Assembly: GCA_030614005.1 (NCBI GenBank)
Contig: JAUWKS010000024.1
Coordinates: forward strand, 16,166 to 48,165
Origin: Candidatus Heimdallarchaeota archaeon
GTDB lineage: Archaea > Asgardarchaeota > Heimdallarchaeia > JABLTI01
Length of the DNA: 32,000 nucleotides
Direction of reading: 5' to 3'
Both the position numbers and the translations under genes were made by a program. Shown piece by piece: positions 18,600 to 27,177 of this stretch (the first letter of the stretch is position 1; every line of letters begins with the position of its first letter). Below the pieces are notes generated by a model. The model was not told the DNA's origin. It did not search any database and saw nothing but the letters and a program-made list of their open reading frames with translations.

Positions 18600-19493
18600 T
18601 CACTTCATCAACCAATTTTTATCAAATTCGCCAATATAACAGAGACAAACTGATTTTGGGCCTGAAATAACACAACAAATATTTCCAGCTTCGTACAAAT
18701 GAATGTTTCTACTTTGAGTATTAACTTTTTGTATTTCATCAAAAATTTCCTGTGCTAAACCTTGATTTCTAACATGATAAAGAAATACTTCATTTATTTC
18801 AGTATGCTCAAGAATTTTTTTACCATATCTCGCCATCTGAGTAACAACATTCTTTTCCCCTTTAATAACACCAAGTGGAATTACAATGCCATCTTCAAAC
18901 GAAACAACAGGAGACATGTTAAAAGCTGAAGCCAATATTTTTTTGGCGCGACCAATGCGACCTTGTTTATATAAATAATTGAGATCCTTAAGTACAAAAA
19001 CATTGTTAACTCTTGGTTGGATGTAAGTTAATCTTTCAAGAATCTCTTTTTTTGTTTTTCCTTCTTTTGCCATTCTTGCTGCTTCTAATACTTGTATTCC
19101 TATACCCATCATAGCTTGTTTAGAATCAAAGATAGTAATATCCTTACCAGGAAAATGATTTTGAACAATCTTTTGAGCGCTTTCAACGGTGGCAGATAAT
19201 TTTGCTCCAACAAAAATAGCAATAACTGAATCTGAGATACTTAGAGCTTTTTCAAAGGCTTCAACAAAAAGACCTGGTGAAGGGACAGAAGAAGATGGAA
19301 GGTATTCTTTAGATATTTTTTCAAGTTTAATATGGAAATCTTCAGTTGAAATCTCACATTTATCTCTGCCCCAAAGCTTGTAGATTTCACTACCAAAAAT
19401 AATTCTAAGAGGAACAACAGAGATATCATATTTTTTGATTATTTCATCCGAAAGATCGCTTGATCCATCGGTAACAATAGCTACTTTAGACAT
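18600..19493 (-). CDS. degV: DegV/FakB family fatty-acid-binding protein
   Basis: AIVTDGSSDL, SSSVPSPG, LSATVESA, DSKQAMMGIG, LNYLYKQGRIG, C-terminal VISGPKSV. Confidence 0.88.
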   Translation of the reverse strand: MSKVAIVTDGSSDLSDEIIKKYDISVVPLRIIFGSEIYKLWGRDKCEISTEDFHIKLEKISKEYLPSSSVPSPGLFVEAFEKALSISDSVIAIFVGAKLSATVESAQKIVQNHFPGKDITIFDSKQAMMGIGIQVLEAARMAKEGKTKKEILERLTYIQPRVNNVFVLKDLNYLYKQGRIGRAKKILASAFNMSPVVSFEDGIVIPLGVIKGEKNVVTQMARYGKKILEHTEINEVFLYHVRNQGLAQEIFDEIQKVNTQSRNIHLYEAGNICCVISGPKSVCLCYIGEFDKNWLMK

Positions 19494-19736: not shown

Positions 19737-19770
19737 TGGTGGCTGAGGCGGAATTCGAATCCGCAATCAC
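19737..19770 (-). repeat. tRNA 3'-end repeat R1
   Basis: TGGTGGCTGAGGCGGAATTCGAATCCGCAATCAC; 2 mismatches to consensus TGGTGGCCGAGGCGGAATTCGAATCCGCGATCAC. Confidence 0.92.
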
Positions 19771-20516: not shown

Positions 20517-20585
20517 AATAAGAAACGTCCATATAAAGAATATAACTAAAATGAATATAAAAATTTAGTAGGCATTAGGAGAAAA

Positions 20586-20619
20586 TGGTAGCCGAGGCGG
20601 AATTCGAATCCGCGATCAC
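20586..20619 (-). repeat. tRNA 3'-end repeat R2
   Basis: TGGTAGCCGAGGCGGAATTCGAATCCGCGATCAC; 1 mismatch to consensus. Confidence 0.92.
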
Positions 20620-20661
20620 AATAGAAAATTAATAAGATGAATTATCAAAAATCAATTTTTC

Positions 20662-21324
20662 TTAATCGATTTCATCTAGCGCAGGAGATTCCAAAACATA
20701 GTCATCGACTTCTATGATTTCAGTATCTGTAGTTGATTCATCAAATAACTGGTGGTATTCTTCATTATCTATATCATCAAGCGGGTTGGAAACTCTCAAT
20801 GGATCAAATAAGTTAATTTCAGAAATCGCTGCAAAGAATCCTATTACTATCATAAGTCCAAAAATGATTGTCACTGAATAGAACAGCACACCTAATTTGT
20901 AAATGAGTGAAAATTTGTTTAGGTGGTTAATGAAATTAGCAAATAGCATCATTGCGATAAAACCTAATATGCCGCCAATCATATGAAGACCCCTTGTAAC
21001 TCTCCAAATAATTATTTGAGGTTTATAGGAGAAATTTTGAGAACGTGTCATTTGACCAACAGTAGTTGAAAATAAACCTCCGAGAATAAAGCCGGTAAAG
21101 AAAAGCGGTTTTATTGCAGCGGAAAAACCCCAAACAACATCATATGTATAACTTGTTGTTTCATATGTATGAGTATCCAATATAACAGAATAACCCCAAA
21201 TCCAGATACTTTCACTTAGGTTAAGTAGTTCACCTGAAGCAACTGGTAGAAGAAATATCAATCCAATTGAGAGATTTAGAAAAGGATACAATATACTAGC
21301 TATTTTAGGAAATTCGAATTTCAT
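20662..21324 (-). CDS. Hypothetical membrane protein (about 4 TM, acidic C-terminal tail), cassette cargo
   Basis: 220-aa ORF filling the R2-R3 interval; stop 42 bp from R2. Confidence 0.7.
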   Translation of the reverse strand: MKFEFPKIASILYPFLNLSIGLIFLLPVASGELLNLSESIWIWGYSVILDTHTYETTSYTYDVVWGFSAAIKPLFFTGFILGGLFSTTVGQMTRSQNFSYKPQIIIWRVTRGLHMIGGILGFIAMMLFANFINHLNKFSLIYKLGVLFYSVTIIFGLMIVIGFFAAISEINLFDPLRVSNPLDDIDNEEYHQLFDESTTDTEIIEVDDYVLESPALDEID

Positions 21325-21432
21325 TTAATGACACTTTCTTTATACCAGTAATAACAGTTGATTTAATATTTTTTGGTAAAAAGAAATGATCAAACAATTG
21401 GATATAAATAATACAAGATGAATAAATTAAAA

Positions 21433-21466
21433 TGGTGGCCGAGGCGGAATTCGAATCCGCGAACAC
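21433..21466 (-). repeat. tRNA 3'-end repeat R3
   Basis: TGGTGGCCGAGGCGGAATTCGAATCCGCGAACAC; 1 mismatch to consensus. Confidence 0.92.
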
Positions 21467-21535
21467 CATCTCCAAAAATAAAAAACCAAGTACTACTGCT
21501 CCTTGTTTATAAATGGAGGTTTTTATACTTGCATC

Positions 21536-21553
21536 CACTTAAGCTGTTAAGTG
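21536..21553. promoter_or_regulatory. Candidate autoregulatory operator of the cassette ArsR gene
   Basis: CACTTAA-GCTG-TTAAGTG, perfect 7-4-7 inverted repeat, just downstream of TTTTTATA (21520-21527) and upstream of an AGGTGAGG SD. Confidence 0.5.
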
Positions 21554-21590
21554 CTTATTTGGTATTACACCACAAACACAAGGTGAGGAT

Positions 21591-21875
21591 ATGTCAGAAG
21601 AAACAATGGTTATTGAGCCAGGCAGAACGAGTATAGTAGCTAAAGCTCTTAAAGCCAAGAGTCGCGTGATGATACTCAAAATCTTATATGAAGAGGATAT
21701 GAACATCACTAGTTTAGCTGAAAGGATGGGTATGTCAATTGCTGCAGTCAGCGAACACATCAAGATTCTAGTGGAGGCAGGGCTGACTACCATTCACTAC
21801 AAATCAGGCATGCATGGTGGTGTAAAGAAGGTTTGCAGTACTAATACCAAGAATGTTGTGTTTAACATAAGGTAG
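21591..21875 (+). CDS. Stand-alone ArsR-family wHTH regulator, cassette cargo
   Basis: AKALKAKSRVMILKILYEEDMNITSLAERMGMSIAAVSEHIKILVEAGL...GMHGGVKKVC; strong SD. Confidence 0.85.
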   Translation: MSEETMVIEPGRTSIVAKALKAKSRVMILKILYEEDMNITSLAERMGMSIAAVSEHIKILVEAGLTTIHYKSGMHGGVKKVCSTNTKNVVFNIR

Positions 21876-22035
21876 TTTCCAACATTCGTTCTTTCATTTA
21901 ACTATACGGACTGCAGAGTCTATAATCCAAAACAACTATTTACTTGTTAGCCAAACGACTTTTTGATTGTTTGGAATGTTTTCTGGACGACTTTCATAGA
22001 CAACCAATAGAGAGAGAAAAGAAGGGAAAAAATAT

Positions 22036-22069
22036 TGGTGACCGGGCCGAAATTCGAATCCGCGATCAC
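22036..22069 (-). repeat. tRNA 3'-end repeat R4 (chimera of tRNA-Pro and repeat consensus)
   Basis: TGGTGACCGGGCCGAAATTCGAATCCGCGATCAC; tRNA-Pro-type bases at positions 10 and 12, repeat-type bases at 20, 28 and 33. Confidence 0.88.
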
Positions 22070-22134
22070 TAAGATATAAGTTTGTCATTTATGAAACAAT
22101 TAAGAGATCAGGGAATCTAACCACATAAATTTGA

Positions 22135-22770
22135 TTATCTAGTGAACCTTTTTTCGTTCTTCTTTTCATTATCTAAAATTTGTTGTACTAACTCAACAAT
22201 AAAAGTTGAAGGATTACTATCAAGAGATAAGAGGTCAACACCTAAATCACGGTGTTGTCTATTTAATTTCCTAGCATTTATTATCGCACCACCTCTCTTA
22301 TCAAAAAGTGATTCAAAATACTCTTTCGATTTGTTATAGTTTGGAATATAATTAGTGAGTTTTTGAAGCAAATTAGACGTAGAGATTGGTGTATAGTAAT
22401 ACGTGTAATGAAGTAAATACCACAACTCGAAACAAGGATTTGATAAACAGAGATTGATATTAGATAGCTCAGCTGATTGTCTTGCTGCGGCAAGATTTGC
22501 AGGAGTATTATTATCGGCATCAAAAACACACCAAACTTGATCTCCATAGTCGAAATCTATCCCATATCTTTGTATTTGACTTATAGCAAATTTCACCAAA
22601 TTTCGTGGATCCGTAACATTTGTATTAGGAGTTAATATCATTAAACCATTATTCCGTTTCCTGTATTTATTAAAATACAACCGTTCAGTTTTTTGACCTT
22701 CACAAATTATTAGGAACATTGCGACTTGTTCTCGAACGCTAGTTTTTCTTGTGGAATAGCCTTTTGCCAT
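22135..22770 (-). CDS. rloB: RloB-family TOPRIM-like protein (AbiLii-like)
   Basis: FLIICEGQKTERLYF, VWCVFDAD, LSNPCFELWYLLHY, NPST. Confidence 0.88.
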   Translation of the reverse strand: MAKGYSTRKTSVREQVAMFLIICEGQKTERLYFNKYRKRNNGLMILTPNTNVTDPRNLVKFAISQIQRYGIDFDYGDQVWCVFDADNNTPANLAAARQSAELSNINLCLSNPCFELWYLLHYTYYYTPISTSNLLQKLTNYIPNYNKSKEYFESLFDKRGGAIINARKLNRQHRDLGVDLLSLDSNPSTFIVELVQQILDNEKKNEKRFTR

Positions 22771-22783
22771 TTTAACCCATTCC

Positions 22784-24007
22784 TCACCCAGTTATGAATG
22801 GTAAAGCACCATATCTTCCAGCGAGATACCCTCGCTCAATGTCTTTATCTTTCCTTGGACTAAATTCAGTCAACGAAAAGAGGTCAGTATTTCCATTCTC
22901 GTTATTTTTTTCAGTAAACCATACTTGATCTCTTCTAAACAGAGTCTGATCTAACAAATTGGTATTATGAGTAGTAAATATTAGCTGTGCATTTGTATTA
23001 AGATTACTTTGATTATGAAAGAGTTCAATTAAAAAAACATTCAATTTATGATGTAATTTGATATCCAATTCATCAATAACGATAATACGATTATGCTCTA
23101 AGGCATCTAACCAAGGACCAATTAGTGAGAAGAATCTTTTTGTACCTTCAGATTCTTCATCAAAGTAATCAAATAAAACACCTTTATGGGAGGTTTTTAT
23201 ATTGATCTCTTCTAGTGGCAAAGCTTTTACTAAGCTAATATAACTTCTAATTTCGGGAGGTAAGGATTCAGGGATTTTATTCAATAACTTTGAGTTTATT
23301 TTAATATCGACTAAAGCTAAATCAGCTTCTGATAATATTTTCAAAACTCGTTCCTTATTCTTGATACTTTTTTGAATATAAGCTAAGGTCGGTCGTTCAG
23401 AACCAATAGGTTGATATGAACTAATGAATTGTAATTGATCTTTAAACCAATAAAAAACAGGAAAAACAACTTTATAATTCTCTTGAGTAGCTTTTGATAA
23501 ATAAAGAGTATTATCTAGGGTTCGTTCAGCGATGAAGCTCTGAATGTTTTTATCTCGAGTAAATCGAAAGACATCCTTTTTTCTTTCGAAGAGCAATGCT
23601 CGTCGGGTATTGCCATACCAGTAAAGGGTTTCTTCGAGAATTTCTGCCCCATTAAAAGCTACTGAGTAATCGTATTTAATATTATTTTGAATGAAGATGA
23701 TTTGAAATTTGGTAGGAATTTGCAAACAATTCTTATCTAACTTGAAAGGCTCATACTTTATTCCCTGACCTTTCTGATGATTGTGCGAATTGAGAACAAG
23801 TGCTTTGAAGAAATAAAAAGCCTTAATTACATTGCTTTTACCAGAAGCATTAGCACCATAAATCACCGCACTACGTAATAAATTATCTGTCTTGAAACCA
23901 TTCGTAATAAGATTCTTCTGTAAAGAGTTATCTTTAGTAGCAACCATACTAAAAACTACTTTATCTTTGATAGACCGAAAATTCTCAATACTAAATTCAA
24001 CCAACAA
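22784..24007 (-). CDS. AAA_21/ABC-type ATPase (RloA/AbiLi-like), partner of RloB
   Basis: MLVEFSIENFRSIKD, IYGANASGKSN, EESEGTKR, IVIDELD, QLIFTTHN, RRDQVWF, YLAGRYGA; 13 bp upstream of rloB. Confidence 0.88.
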   Translation of the reverse strand: MLVEFSIENFRSIKDKVVFSMVATKDNSLQKNLITNGFKTDNLLRSAVIYGANASGKSNVIKAFYFFKALVLNSHNHQKGQGIKYEPFKLDKNCLQIPTKFQIIFIQNNIKYDYSVAFNGAEILEETLYWYGNTRRALLFERKKDVFRFTRDKNIQSFIAERTLDNTLYLSKATQENYKVVFPVFYWFKDQLQFISSYQPIGSERPTLAYIQKSIKNKERVLKILSEADLALVDIKINSKLLNKIPESLPPEIRSYISLVKALPLEEINIKTSHKGVLFDYFDEESEGTKRFFSLIGPWLDALEHNRIIVIDELDIKLHHKLNVFLIELFHNQSNLNTNAQLIFTTHNTNLLDQTLFRRDQVWFTEKNNENGNTDLFSLTEFSPRKDKDIERGYLAGRYGALPFITG

Positions 24008-24030
24008 AGTAAAACACCGTTAAATGTCAT

Positions 24031-24053
24031 TTTTTGTGATTTTTTCACAAAAA
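24031..24053. promoter_or_regulatory. Perfect 9-5-9 inverted repeat upstream of the ATPase-RloB operon
   Basis: TTTTTGTGA-TTTTT-TCACAAAAA, 23 bp before the TTG start and downstream of a TTATTAAA box on the minus strand. Confidence 0.5.
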
Positions 24054-24157
24054 CCAAGCTTTAATAATTAGCTTGTTTTATTTAAAGATTATGGAACACA
24101 TGAAGAAAAATATGCAAAAAACAATAGGAAAAAAGAGAAAAGAAGGAAAAAAAGTAT

Positions 24158-24191
24158 TGGTGGCCGAGGCGGAATTCGAGTCAGTAATCAC
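24158..24191 (-). repeat. tRNA 3'-end repeat R5 (T-stem 5' strand decayed)
   Basis: TGGTGGCCGAGGCGGAATTCGAGTCAGTAATCAC; 4 mismatches to consensus, clustered at positions 23-29. Confidence 0.88.
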
Positions 24192-24463
24192 TAGATGTTT
24201 ATTCTTCCAAAACAAGATTAGGGATCAAGGGAAAATATTTGGTCTTTTTATAGATAATCTCAGACATTTAATTGTACAATAATTTGTTGGTAGGTAGTAA
24301 TGAAAAACAGCACTATTACTAAAGAAGAATGTATTGAAATGATGAGTTTAGAGTTTCTTTTATTGAAGGATAATGTTCTCTCTCTCCGGAGATGTAAGGG
24401 ATGTTACTGCAGAGAAGAAAGTAGTAATATTAGGATACAGAAAGAATTGACTGATAAGGGAAA

Positions 24464-24571
24464 TGGTGGCCGGGCCGGAATTTGAATCCGGGATCTCCTA
24501 CTAATTCGCAATTGGGATTTCCTCCCATATTGTCCCAAAGCAGGAATCATACCGTGCTAGACTACCCGGCC
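24464..24571 (-). tRNA. tRNA-Pro: tRNA-Pro(UGG) with encoded CCA and a 31-nt intron
   Basis: Cloverleaf: acceptor GGCCGGG/CCCGGCC, anticodon stem CCTGC/GTAGG with loop TT-TGG-G|A, T-arm CCGGA-TTCAAAT-TCCGG, 3' ACCA; 77 nt mature. Confidence 0.93.
24503..24533 (-). other. tRNA intron at 37/38 with bulge-helix-bulge motif
   Basis: ACAATATGGGAGGAAATCCCAATTGCGAATT. Central helix TTTG/CGAA, 3-nt bulges GG|A and TT|A, outer helix CAAT/ATTG + TGGGA/TCCCA. Confidence 0.9.
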
Positions 24572-24720
24572 GTTTGTTTTGCTTTTCTAGCATTCTTTTA
24601 TCGTTCTTTTTTTCTTTTTGAATCTTTCGTTTAGTAGCGATTAGTTTAATTATCTTTTATTTTCTCTTGTTATTAAAAGGAAGCATAAAATTTAACTTAT
24701 TGGACTAGAAATTTATCTTC

Positions 24721-26265: not shown

Positions 26266-27177
26266 ATGAAGAAAAGTAGTATAGTACAAGATAACTATAA
26301 GCTAAACTCAAAAGTAGTTACAATTAGAGATTTAGATAAAGAATTATTTGAACGCTTTTCTTCGCTCACAAAAGTTTGGGGAAAAAATACCGGAACGATT
26401 TTCACAAATATTATCAAAAATTTTTTAGCAGGAAATGGATCAAATGTTTTTTTACCTCCTCTTGAGAATCACTTTAGGAGGAAGAACTTTGAACATCTTG
26501 AAATAATCGAAAATGAAGAGGAATTAATTATTAATAAAAAGGATTTGACATCTTTACCTGATAATGTGAAATTTTACTTCAGCAATATCAGAAAATTAGT
26601 TATTGCTGAAGACATTGATACAACCACTTTATTAAAATACATTTATCGAATTAAAAACTCAATTGTTGTTGTTCCAGATAGCATTGAAAATATACCCTTT
26701 CTATCTCTTTTACAAAATCATCCACAGTATCAATTCAGTGACCGCCAAACAAAAGATGTAACTATACGCCATGTAAATGAACAGACATGGAATGATTTCA
26801 CGGCCTTTTGTCAAATAAACAATACAAAAATTGGTTTCTTGTTAAGCGAAATTTTATGGGAAATAATCCCAGAAATGGAAATTACTCAGATCTTGCTCAG
26901 TAAAATCAAAGAACCTCACGATAATATCATTGTTATTTCAGCATTGAATTCAACTGAAATAAATCATGCAAATATTAATGCAATTAGTACAAAGATGGTT
27001 TTGTTTCATAGAATTAATGAATTGATATTTCAAGATGATATGACCAACAAAGATTTTCTTGAAAAAGTAGTTGGAATATACAATTGTCATAAAACAGTTT
27101 TTCCTAAATCATTTTCAAAATTGCTGAAACTTTCTCGAATACATAAATATCCTGTTTTTACTCCTTTGAAGGAGTAA
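26266..27177 (+). CDS. Hypothetical protein with an internal tandem duplication, each half starting with a ribbon-helix-helix-like motif
   Basis: KVVTIRDLDKELFERF...GTIFTNII and KDVTIRHVNEQTWNDF...GFLLSEIL, each followed by similar F.NI..LV..ED / FHRINELIFQDD segments. Confidence 0.7.
   Translation: MKKSSIVQDNYKLNSKVVTIRDLDKELFERFSSLTKVWGKNTGTIFTNIIKNFLAGNGSNVFLPPLENHFRRKNFEHLEIIENEEELIINKKDLTSLPDNVKFYFSNIRKLVIAEDIDTTTLLKYIYRIKNSIVVVPDSIENIPFLSLLQNHPQYQFSDRQTKDVTIRHVNEQTWNDFTAFCQINNTKIGFLLSEILWEIIPEMEITQILLSKIKEPHDNIIVISALNSTEINHANINAISTKMVLFHRINELIFQDDMTNKDFLEKVVGIYNCHKTVFPKSFSKLLKLSRIHKYPVFTPLKE

Follow-up and report, generated by a model that had tools for sequence, protein, structure and literature searches.

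Repeat R4 lies in an array of small gene cassettes behind a tRNA-Pro(UGG) gene of Candidatus Heimdallarchaeota archaeon, and cassettes of this array are gained or lost precisely at the repeat sites in natural populations. We put at about one half the probability that R4, a 34-nt mimic of the tRNA 3′ end, is an attR-type relic in which the exchange fell within nt 66-73 (tRNA numbering) and only nt 66-76, with the trailer that follows, represent a displaced older tRNA end. This reading is drawn from sister junctions at neighbouring sites, R4's own exchange event not being among those observed. Judged by sequence, another member of the family, R5, and not R4, is the demonstrable hybrid. Public metagenomes hold cassette-precise variants of the array, which place the exchange region at the acceptor 3′ strand without experiment and make the identity of the enzyme that moves gene cassettes in Asgard archaea a question directly testable at a defined site.

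Array layout and cargo

The window, that is the whole stretch of DNA analysed, covers 32,000 nt of contig JAUWKS010000024.1 (GCA_030614005.1). The assembly to which it belongs (G000) is 3.6 Mb long at 33.5% GC, is ~90% complete and has many intron-bearing tRNAs. No tRNA was detected in the window by ARAGORN at default settings or by Rfam at gathering score, because the tRNA-Pro(UGG) gene that anchors the array has a 31-nt intron. The features are listed in tRNA sense.

24464-24571, minus strand: tRNA-Pro(UGG), 31-nt intron after nt 37/38, encoded CCA; from ARAGORN -i and from acceptor and T-stem pairing; anchors the array
24168-24473, minus strand: 306-nt variable unit, made of the last 10 nt of the tRNA, the 272-nt spacer and R5 up to nt 66
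24158-24191, minus strand: R5, read from sequence as a hybrid site, with nt 43-66 from the 306-nt unit, and nt 67-76 and trailer matching the tRNA 3′ end of unit-free strains
22784-24007, minus strand: AbiLi-type ATPase (AAA_21; Pfam PF13304, 1.9e-32; PADLOC AbiLi, 1.2e-95)
22135-22770, minus strand: AbiLii/RloB-like protein, second gene of the cassette (Pfam PF13707, 1.1e-38; PADLOC AbiLii, 1.2e-27)
22036-22069, minus strand: R4, mimic of the tRNA-Pro 3′ end (nt 43-76), distal border of the AbiL cassette
21990-22035, minus strand: pyrimidine-rich trailer 3′ of R4, resembling the R5 trailer in local alignments
21591-21875, plus strand: ArsR-type winged HTH gene, cargo of the R4-R3 interval (Pfam PF01022, 1.1e-10)
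21433-21466, minus strand: R3, consensus-type repeat
20582-21428, minus strand: 847-nt variable unit, the 220-aa ORF cassette and one core
20586-20619, minus strand: R2, consensus-type repeat
19737-19770, minus strand: R1, consensus-type repeat, followed by the DegV gene
18600-19493: DegV gene, after R1; repeat-flanked in relatives

The repeat family has six co-oriented members, starting at 19737, 20586, 21433, 22036 and 24158, with the last 34 nt of the tRNA gene itself (24464-24497) as the sixth. On the minus strand each copy reads as tRNA nt 43-76 and so spans, after a single anticodon-stem base, the variable loop, T-arm, acceptor 3′ strand and terminal ACCA. Beyond these 34 nt the repeat unit continues into a trailer of ~40-50 nt that resembles the tRNA's own; by local alignments the R4 and R5 units are similar over ~110 nt, and the R4 and R5 cores have diverged by ~24%, comparable to their flanks.

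Read along the tRNA strand, tRNA-Pro and a 272-nt spacer are followed by R5, the AbiLi ATPase and AbiLii/RloB genes, R4, the HTH gene, R3, the 220-aa ORF, R2, a 174-aa ORF, R1, DegV and then ABC transporters. The AbiL cassette (2.1 kb) is limited by R5 (or the tRNA) and R4. The HTH gene is the sole array gene on the opposite strand; the HTH domains of two PADLOC models, Csa3 and CasR, match its protein as well. The two 850-nt cassettes are not mutual duplicates, their proteins being unrelated, and simple tandem duplication was likewise rejected as the origin of the repeats, the cassette contents being unrelated. Nor are the repeats halves of a split tRNA, having neither a 5′-half partner nor a leader.

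No recombinase domain was found with Pfam among the array ORFs or their neighbours, nor an integrase beside the orthologous arrays of five relatives. The single PF00589 match in the assembly is on another contig. Each genome encodes, away from the array, a tyrosine recombinase of ~355 aa. A 303-aa gene beside the tRNA (26266-27177, plus strand) has no recombinase signature in Pfam; its protein belongs to no known family, has an internal two-fold repeat and adjoins the tRNA-Pro array in the sister genome G010, the closest relative, and in metagenome contigs as well.

Exchange points in metagenome contigs and relatives

Two joints found in metagenome contigs carry the main reading. The first, 24167→24474, occurs in the X1 and X5 contigs from two studies: the 306 nt are absent and the tRNA stands directly before the AbiL cassette. 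In the joined sequence G65 is that of the tRNA and T67 that of R5, which puts the exchange somewhere between nt 65 and nt 67. A join in a one-base window between two mismatches argues against homologous recombination, which rarely uses such windows. The second, 20581→21429, occurs in the X4 contig from a third study, where exactly the 220-aa cassette and one core are absent. Here eight letters are shared, and the joint falls within the shared ACCATTTT, 3′ of nt 72, which puts the exchange between nt 73 and +4. The two population exchange points enclose the acceptor 3′ strand at a distance of 7 nt from one another, a spacing (n = 2 junctions) compatible with the staggered cuts of a tyrosine recombinase; the staggered-cut reading depends on this spacing. 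In each of the samples X1 and X4 both forms of the respective unit are present as contigs, and the array seems, from these sequences, to be turning over at present.

Compared with the window, the X1 contig has 38 differences, of which 37 fall in 22251-24121 (~2%, the AbiL cassette), one in 20849-22250 and none in 24474-24700; R4 is unchanged. The pattern makes the AbiL cassette a separately evolving unit, bounded near R4 and at the tRNA/R5 join, and this supports R4 as its distal, attR-type border. To judge from the aligned contigs, a defence-system allele seems to have been swapped in X1 within the limits of the AbiL cassette; the array carries a defence system whose allele would be exchanged between strains at repeat borders. 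In the window the repeats flanking AbiL are R5 and R4; in X1, X5 and the sister species G009 the tRNA itself takes the place of R5, with a repeat at the R4 position on the far side. Among the public metagenome contigs aligned to the window no AbiL-free joint or contig was seen; two joints with 23-letter sides (22941 and 23157) and short loose-end contigs were left out as likely foreign. A pattern scan of metagenomes gave only seven short contigs, none with the R4 orthologue.

Five genomes of the same genus (Heimdallarchaeota MAGs) have arrays at the orthologous tRNA with common host-gene flanks and with cassette content and order shuffled. DegV is repeat-bracketed in G005, G006 and G008 and stands directly after the tRNA in one metagenome contig; the 220-aa ORF does so in another. 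In G009 the AbiL pair (76% identity) directly follows the tRNA and a distal repeat closes the cassette, whereas G010 lacks AbiL and the next two cassettes.

These genomes provide further junctions. Two G005 contigs that have the right-hand cassette in common (C33 and C108) are identical at 79 of 79 bases from nt 72 onward, while their cores have seven mismatches in nt 45-71 and their left contexts are unrelated. The cores downstream of DegV in G005 and G006 have a derived A64 in common with the left context and diverge right after CCA. The tRNAs of G000 and G010 show no difference as far as nt 66; nt 67 differs, and their trailers are unrelated. The G010 repeat Rb, orthologous to R5, differs from it at exactly nt 57 and 65. 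Only at these two sites, too, does Rb depart from the consensus, with A57 and G65 as in the tRNA; its apparent switch is at nt 50-56, and its junction with an R2-type flank is apparently at +6/+7. The distal repeat of G009 resembles that genome's own unusual T-arm from nt 46 onward.

The orthologous site of G010 (C39, 3733-16362) is occupied by an island of 12.6 kb that encodes a caspase-like protease, an FtsX/ABC pair, a TSP3-repeat subtilase and an LVIVD-repeat protein; inside it is a remnant of R3 and the start of the 220-aa cassette.

Origin of R4

The R4 34-mer occurs once in the window. The repeat consensus and tRNA-Pro(UGG) mismatch at plus-strand positions 10, 12, 20, 28 and 33, which are tRNA nt 67, 65, 57, 49 and 44. 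At nt 44, 49 and 57 R4 agrees with the consensus and at nt 65 and 67 with the window tRNA, and a single mismatch, G49/G65, interrupts its T-stem; the initial annotation, which had described mixed states at five sites and an imperfect T-stem, was correct on these points. R4 also has two changes of its own, T71 (position 6) and T62 (position 15), found in neither consensus nor window tRNA. Its four departures from the consensus are confined to the 3′ 15 nt (nt 62-71); the 5′ 19 nt (nt 43-61) have none.

No separate tRNA gene matches R4 throughout. The search covered the three tRNA-Pro genes of the ~90% complete assembly, UGG (C8), GGG (C63) and CGG (C9), none of which matched, and all assembly 34-mers within eight mismatches. 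The GGG gene was rejected as the source of R4, since its T-arm is different and it shares only T71 (and T67 with the consensus). That gene (C63, 19590-19728, minus strand) was missed by ARAGORN and has apparently two introns, one inside the T-loop; T67 and T71 are both present in its acceptor 3′ strand. The ARAGORN call at C9 (33124-33229) was tRNA-Phe(aaa) with an intron, but the sequence reads tRNA-Pro(CGG), with CCA not encoded.

Under the preferred attR-type reading, the 2.1-kb AbiL cassette would have been inserted at the tRNA-Pro(UGG) 3′ end with R4 as its distal border. Each small cassette would carry its own copy of the last 34 nt of the tRNA and ~40-50 nt of trailer, and a site-specific recombinase, probably of the tyrosine type and encoded elsewhere, would make staggered cuts around the acceptor 3′ strand (nt 66-72), insertion swapping only the last ~11 nt of the tRNA. 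In R4, nt 43-65 would then be the cassette's own site and nt 66-76 with the trailer the displaced older tRNA end. C67 fits a displaced tRNA end because it is the genus-typical base and pairs with G6. G65 would be on the cassette side of the cut, there by coincidence or from an earlier match with the host, and not a crossover marker; a cut at nt 66 leaves G65 in both R4 and G010 Rb unaccounted for. The likeness of the G009 repeat to its host T-arm, together with cores that travel with cassettes, would require either host-matched sites or exchange further 5′.

The initial annotation had instead proposed exchange by a tyrosine recombinase in the T-loop/T-stem (nt 58-64) between the host tRNA-Pro and a consensus-type site, predicting an R4 of consensus type as far as nt 57 and of tRNA origin from nt 65 on. 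We regard this as unlikely. In its favour are the confinement of all four R4 differences to nt 62-71, with none in nt 43-61, and the pairing of the R4 3′ part, complete with the tRNA 5′ half (G52-U62 and G2-U71 wobbles; C49-G65). G65 is also confined, among ~40 cores and 12 tRNA-Pro genes of the genus that formed the marker comparison set, to the tRNA-Pro(UGG) genes of G000 and G010, R4 and G010 Rb, and a passage of PMC8371274 that cites Williams 2002 recognises the T stem-loop as an integration sublocation.

Against it, every mapped junction, whether in this array or in those of relatives, falls 3′ of nt 64 to 72, the two in the array itself at nt 66 and between nt 73 and +4. The expected consistent switching within nt 57-65 did not appear when the chimeras were compared: G010 Rb apparently switches at nt 50-56, junctions in relatives fall 3′ of nt 64 or 3′ of nt 71, and the array adds nt 66 and the stretch from nt 73 to +4. 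Exchange with consensus-type sites also predicts tRNAs with a C49/C65 mismatch, and there are none among the 12 tRNA-Pro genes. Finally, nt 67 is not diagnostic of the parents, as had been assumed: T67 is carried by the tRNA itself in the X1 and X5 strains (two other metagenome studies) and in G010, where it gives a G6-U67 wobble, and C67 is the majority state across the cores of the genus. By sequence comparison nt 65 is then the sole diagnostic marker left for an R4 chimera, a single-base case. If substitutions fell at random on the window consensus, two or more tRNA-state matches would arise in at least one of the five repeats with a probability of ~0.025, and matches that also mimic a single breakpoint with a probability of ~0.005, but this null needs an informative nt 67, which the later evidence has made uninformative; with nt 65 as lone marker, the probability that some repeat acquires G65 is 0.06-0.11.

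Under the attR-type reading, nt 58-64 would be the edge of a similarity block and not the exchange site, the 5′ limit of the similarity between an attR and a tRNA marking where the shared block ends and not where the cut was made; caution is advisable wherever such an edge is used as a cut site. Of the earlier proposal of a recombination scar, there remains plausible a relic at the border of a mobile cassette, together with the lack of a full tRNA match; the crossover position does not stand. We also considered R5 and R4 as reciprocal products of T-loop exchange (R5 changes at nt 48-54, R4 at nt 62-71; ordering probability 1/70), and dropped this because the X1 and X5 contigs trace the R5 mosaic to the nt 66 junction.

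Short-patch gene conversion or homologous recombination from the nearby tRNA into R4, and likewise in G010, with variable ends and no site-specific enzyme, is an improbable origin too. It would explain why both departures of G010 Rb are in the tRNA state (chance estimate ~0.001-0.003, from the per-site odds of the random-substitution calculation) and are exactly the sites that distinguish it from R5, and why the repeats of a genome tend to resemble its own tRNA, as in G009. However, the tract in R4 must fit between T62 and T71, at most 8 nt, and the 306-nt join falls in a one-base window, rare for homologous recombination.

We give similarly little credence to plain divergence, in which R4 is a diverged variant of a genus-wide site with point substitutions and no tRNA-derived part, G65 being coincidental. 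The nearest sequence found to R4, a G005 repeat (C108:1876), has only three differences from it and already has C67 and T71. The changes T67, T71 and T72 are recurrent C-to-T changes, T71 being found in the tRNA-Pro(GGG) genes of G004 and G000 and in several G005 repeats, and T62 recurs in the G010 repeat Rc and in an orphan fragment on C55 of G000. The chance of G65 in some repeat given above, and an R4/R5 core difference at the level of the flanks, point the same way. The clustering of four differences in the 3′ 15 nt (hypergeometric probability ~0.03) speaks against it, as does the finding of G65 only in genomes with a G65 tRNA.

Comparison with known mobile systems

R4 belongs to a known class of tRNA att-site relics and is in that respect an ordinary feature; its details are minor, as any tRNA gene used for integration can be expected to yield hybrid att sites. 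The array is unusual in its very small integrase-less units, its long repeat unit and its cassette-level turnover in populations.

Elements that integrate into tRNA genes by tyrosine recombinases include the lambda and P4 types in bacteria and the SSV, pTN3 and SNJ2 types in archaea. As in these attL/attR elements, direct repeats of the tRNA 3′ segment flank the insert, here co-oriented with the tRNA, and the tRNA is kept intact and the site re-used, yielding tandem arrays. They differ from the present case in that no integrase is found here in the cassettes or beside the array, the units measure only 0.3-2.1 kb and hold two genes at most, or none, the trailer takes the repeat unit ~40-50 nt past CCA, and the mapped exchange is in the acceptor 3′ strand and not in a loop. 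Integration into the 3′ part of tRNA genes, tandem arrays by site re-use and the frequent later loss of the integrase gene are established for archaea (PMC8371274, PMC6563490), and mobile elements at tRNA genes have already been described in Heimdallarchaeum (PMC8813620).

By analogy, the array is integron-like in behaviour without the defining parts of an integron. Like integrons (attI, attC, IntI) it has co-oriented, mostly single-gene cassettes with one recombination site each, cassette-precise presence and absence among strains, an order shuffled among relatives, and defence cargo. Unlike them, its sites are copies of a tRNA 3′ end and not attC hairpins, its anchor is a tRNA gene and not attI, and no IntI-type gene adjoins it.

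Casposons, in work by Beguin et al. in 2016, reportedly target tRNA 3′ ends, including that of tRNA-Pro, with tandem insertions, and are said to have 14-15 bp target duplications and terminal inverted repeats and to carry cas1 and polB. The target and the tandem insertions are the same here, but the cassettes lack the target duplication, the inverted repeats and both genes, and their repeat comprises 34 nt and a trailer; an origin of the repeats as casposon target duplications was rejected on the lack of inverted repeats, cas1 and polB.

A wider reading, which we hold only tentatively and consider possible but doubtful, is that the array is a living tRNA-anchored cassette system of Heimdall-group archaea, in which single-gene units, each with its copy of the tRNA-Pro 3′ end, would enter, leave and pass between strains through a recombinase encoded elsewhere whose cuts would flank nt 66-72, with R4 as a working site. 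If true, a tRNA gene would here form the base of an integron-like platform, every event rewriting only the last 11 nt of the tRNA.

Other tRNA 3′-end copies were noted in the same assembly. The orphan fragment on C55 (7904-7937) has the acceptor strand CTCGCCC, like that of tRNA-Pro(CGG); it lacks a 5′ half and probably represents a further att relic. On C110 a tRNA-Ala(UGC) gene (34604-34714) is followed by two more copies of its 3′ end, at 51079-51104 and 54646-54679 (16 and 20 kb downstream), which probably mark another integrated element or array.
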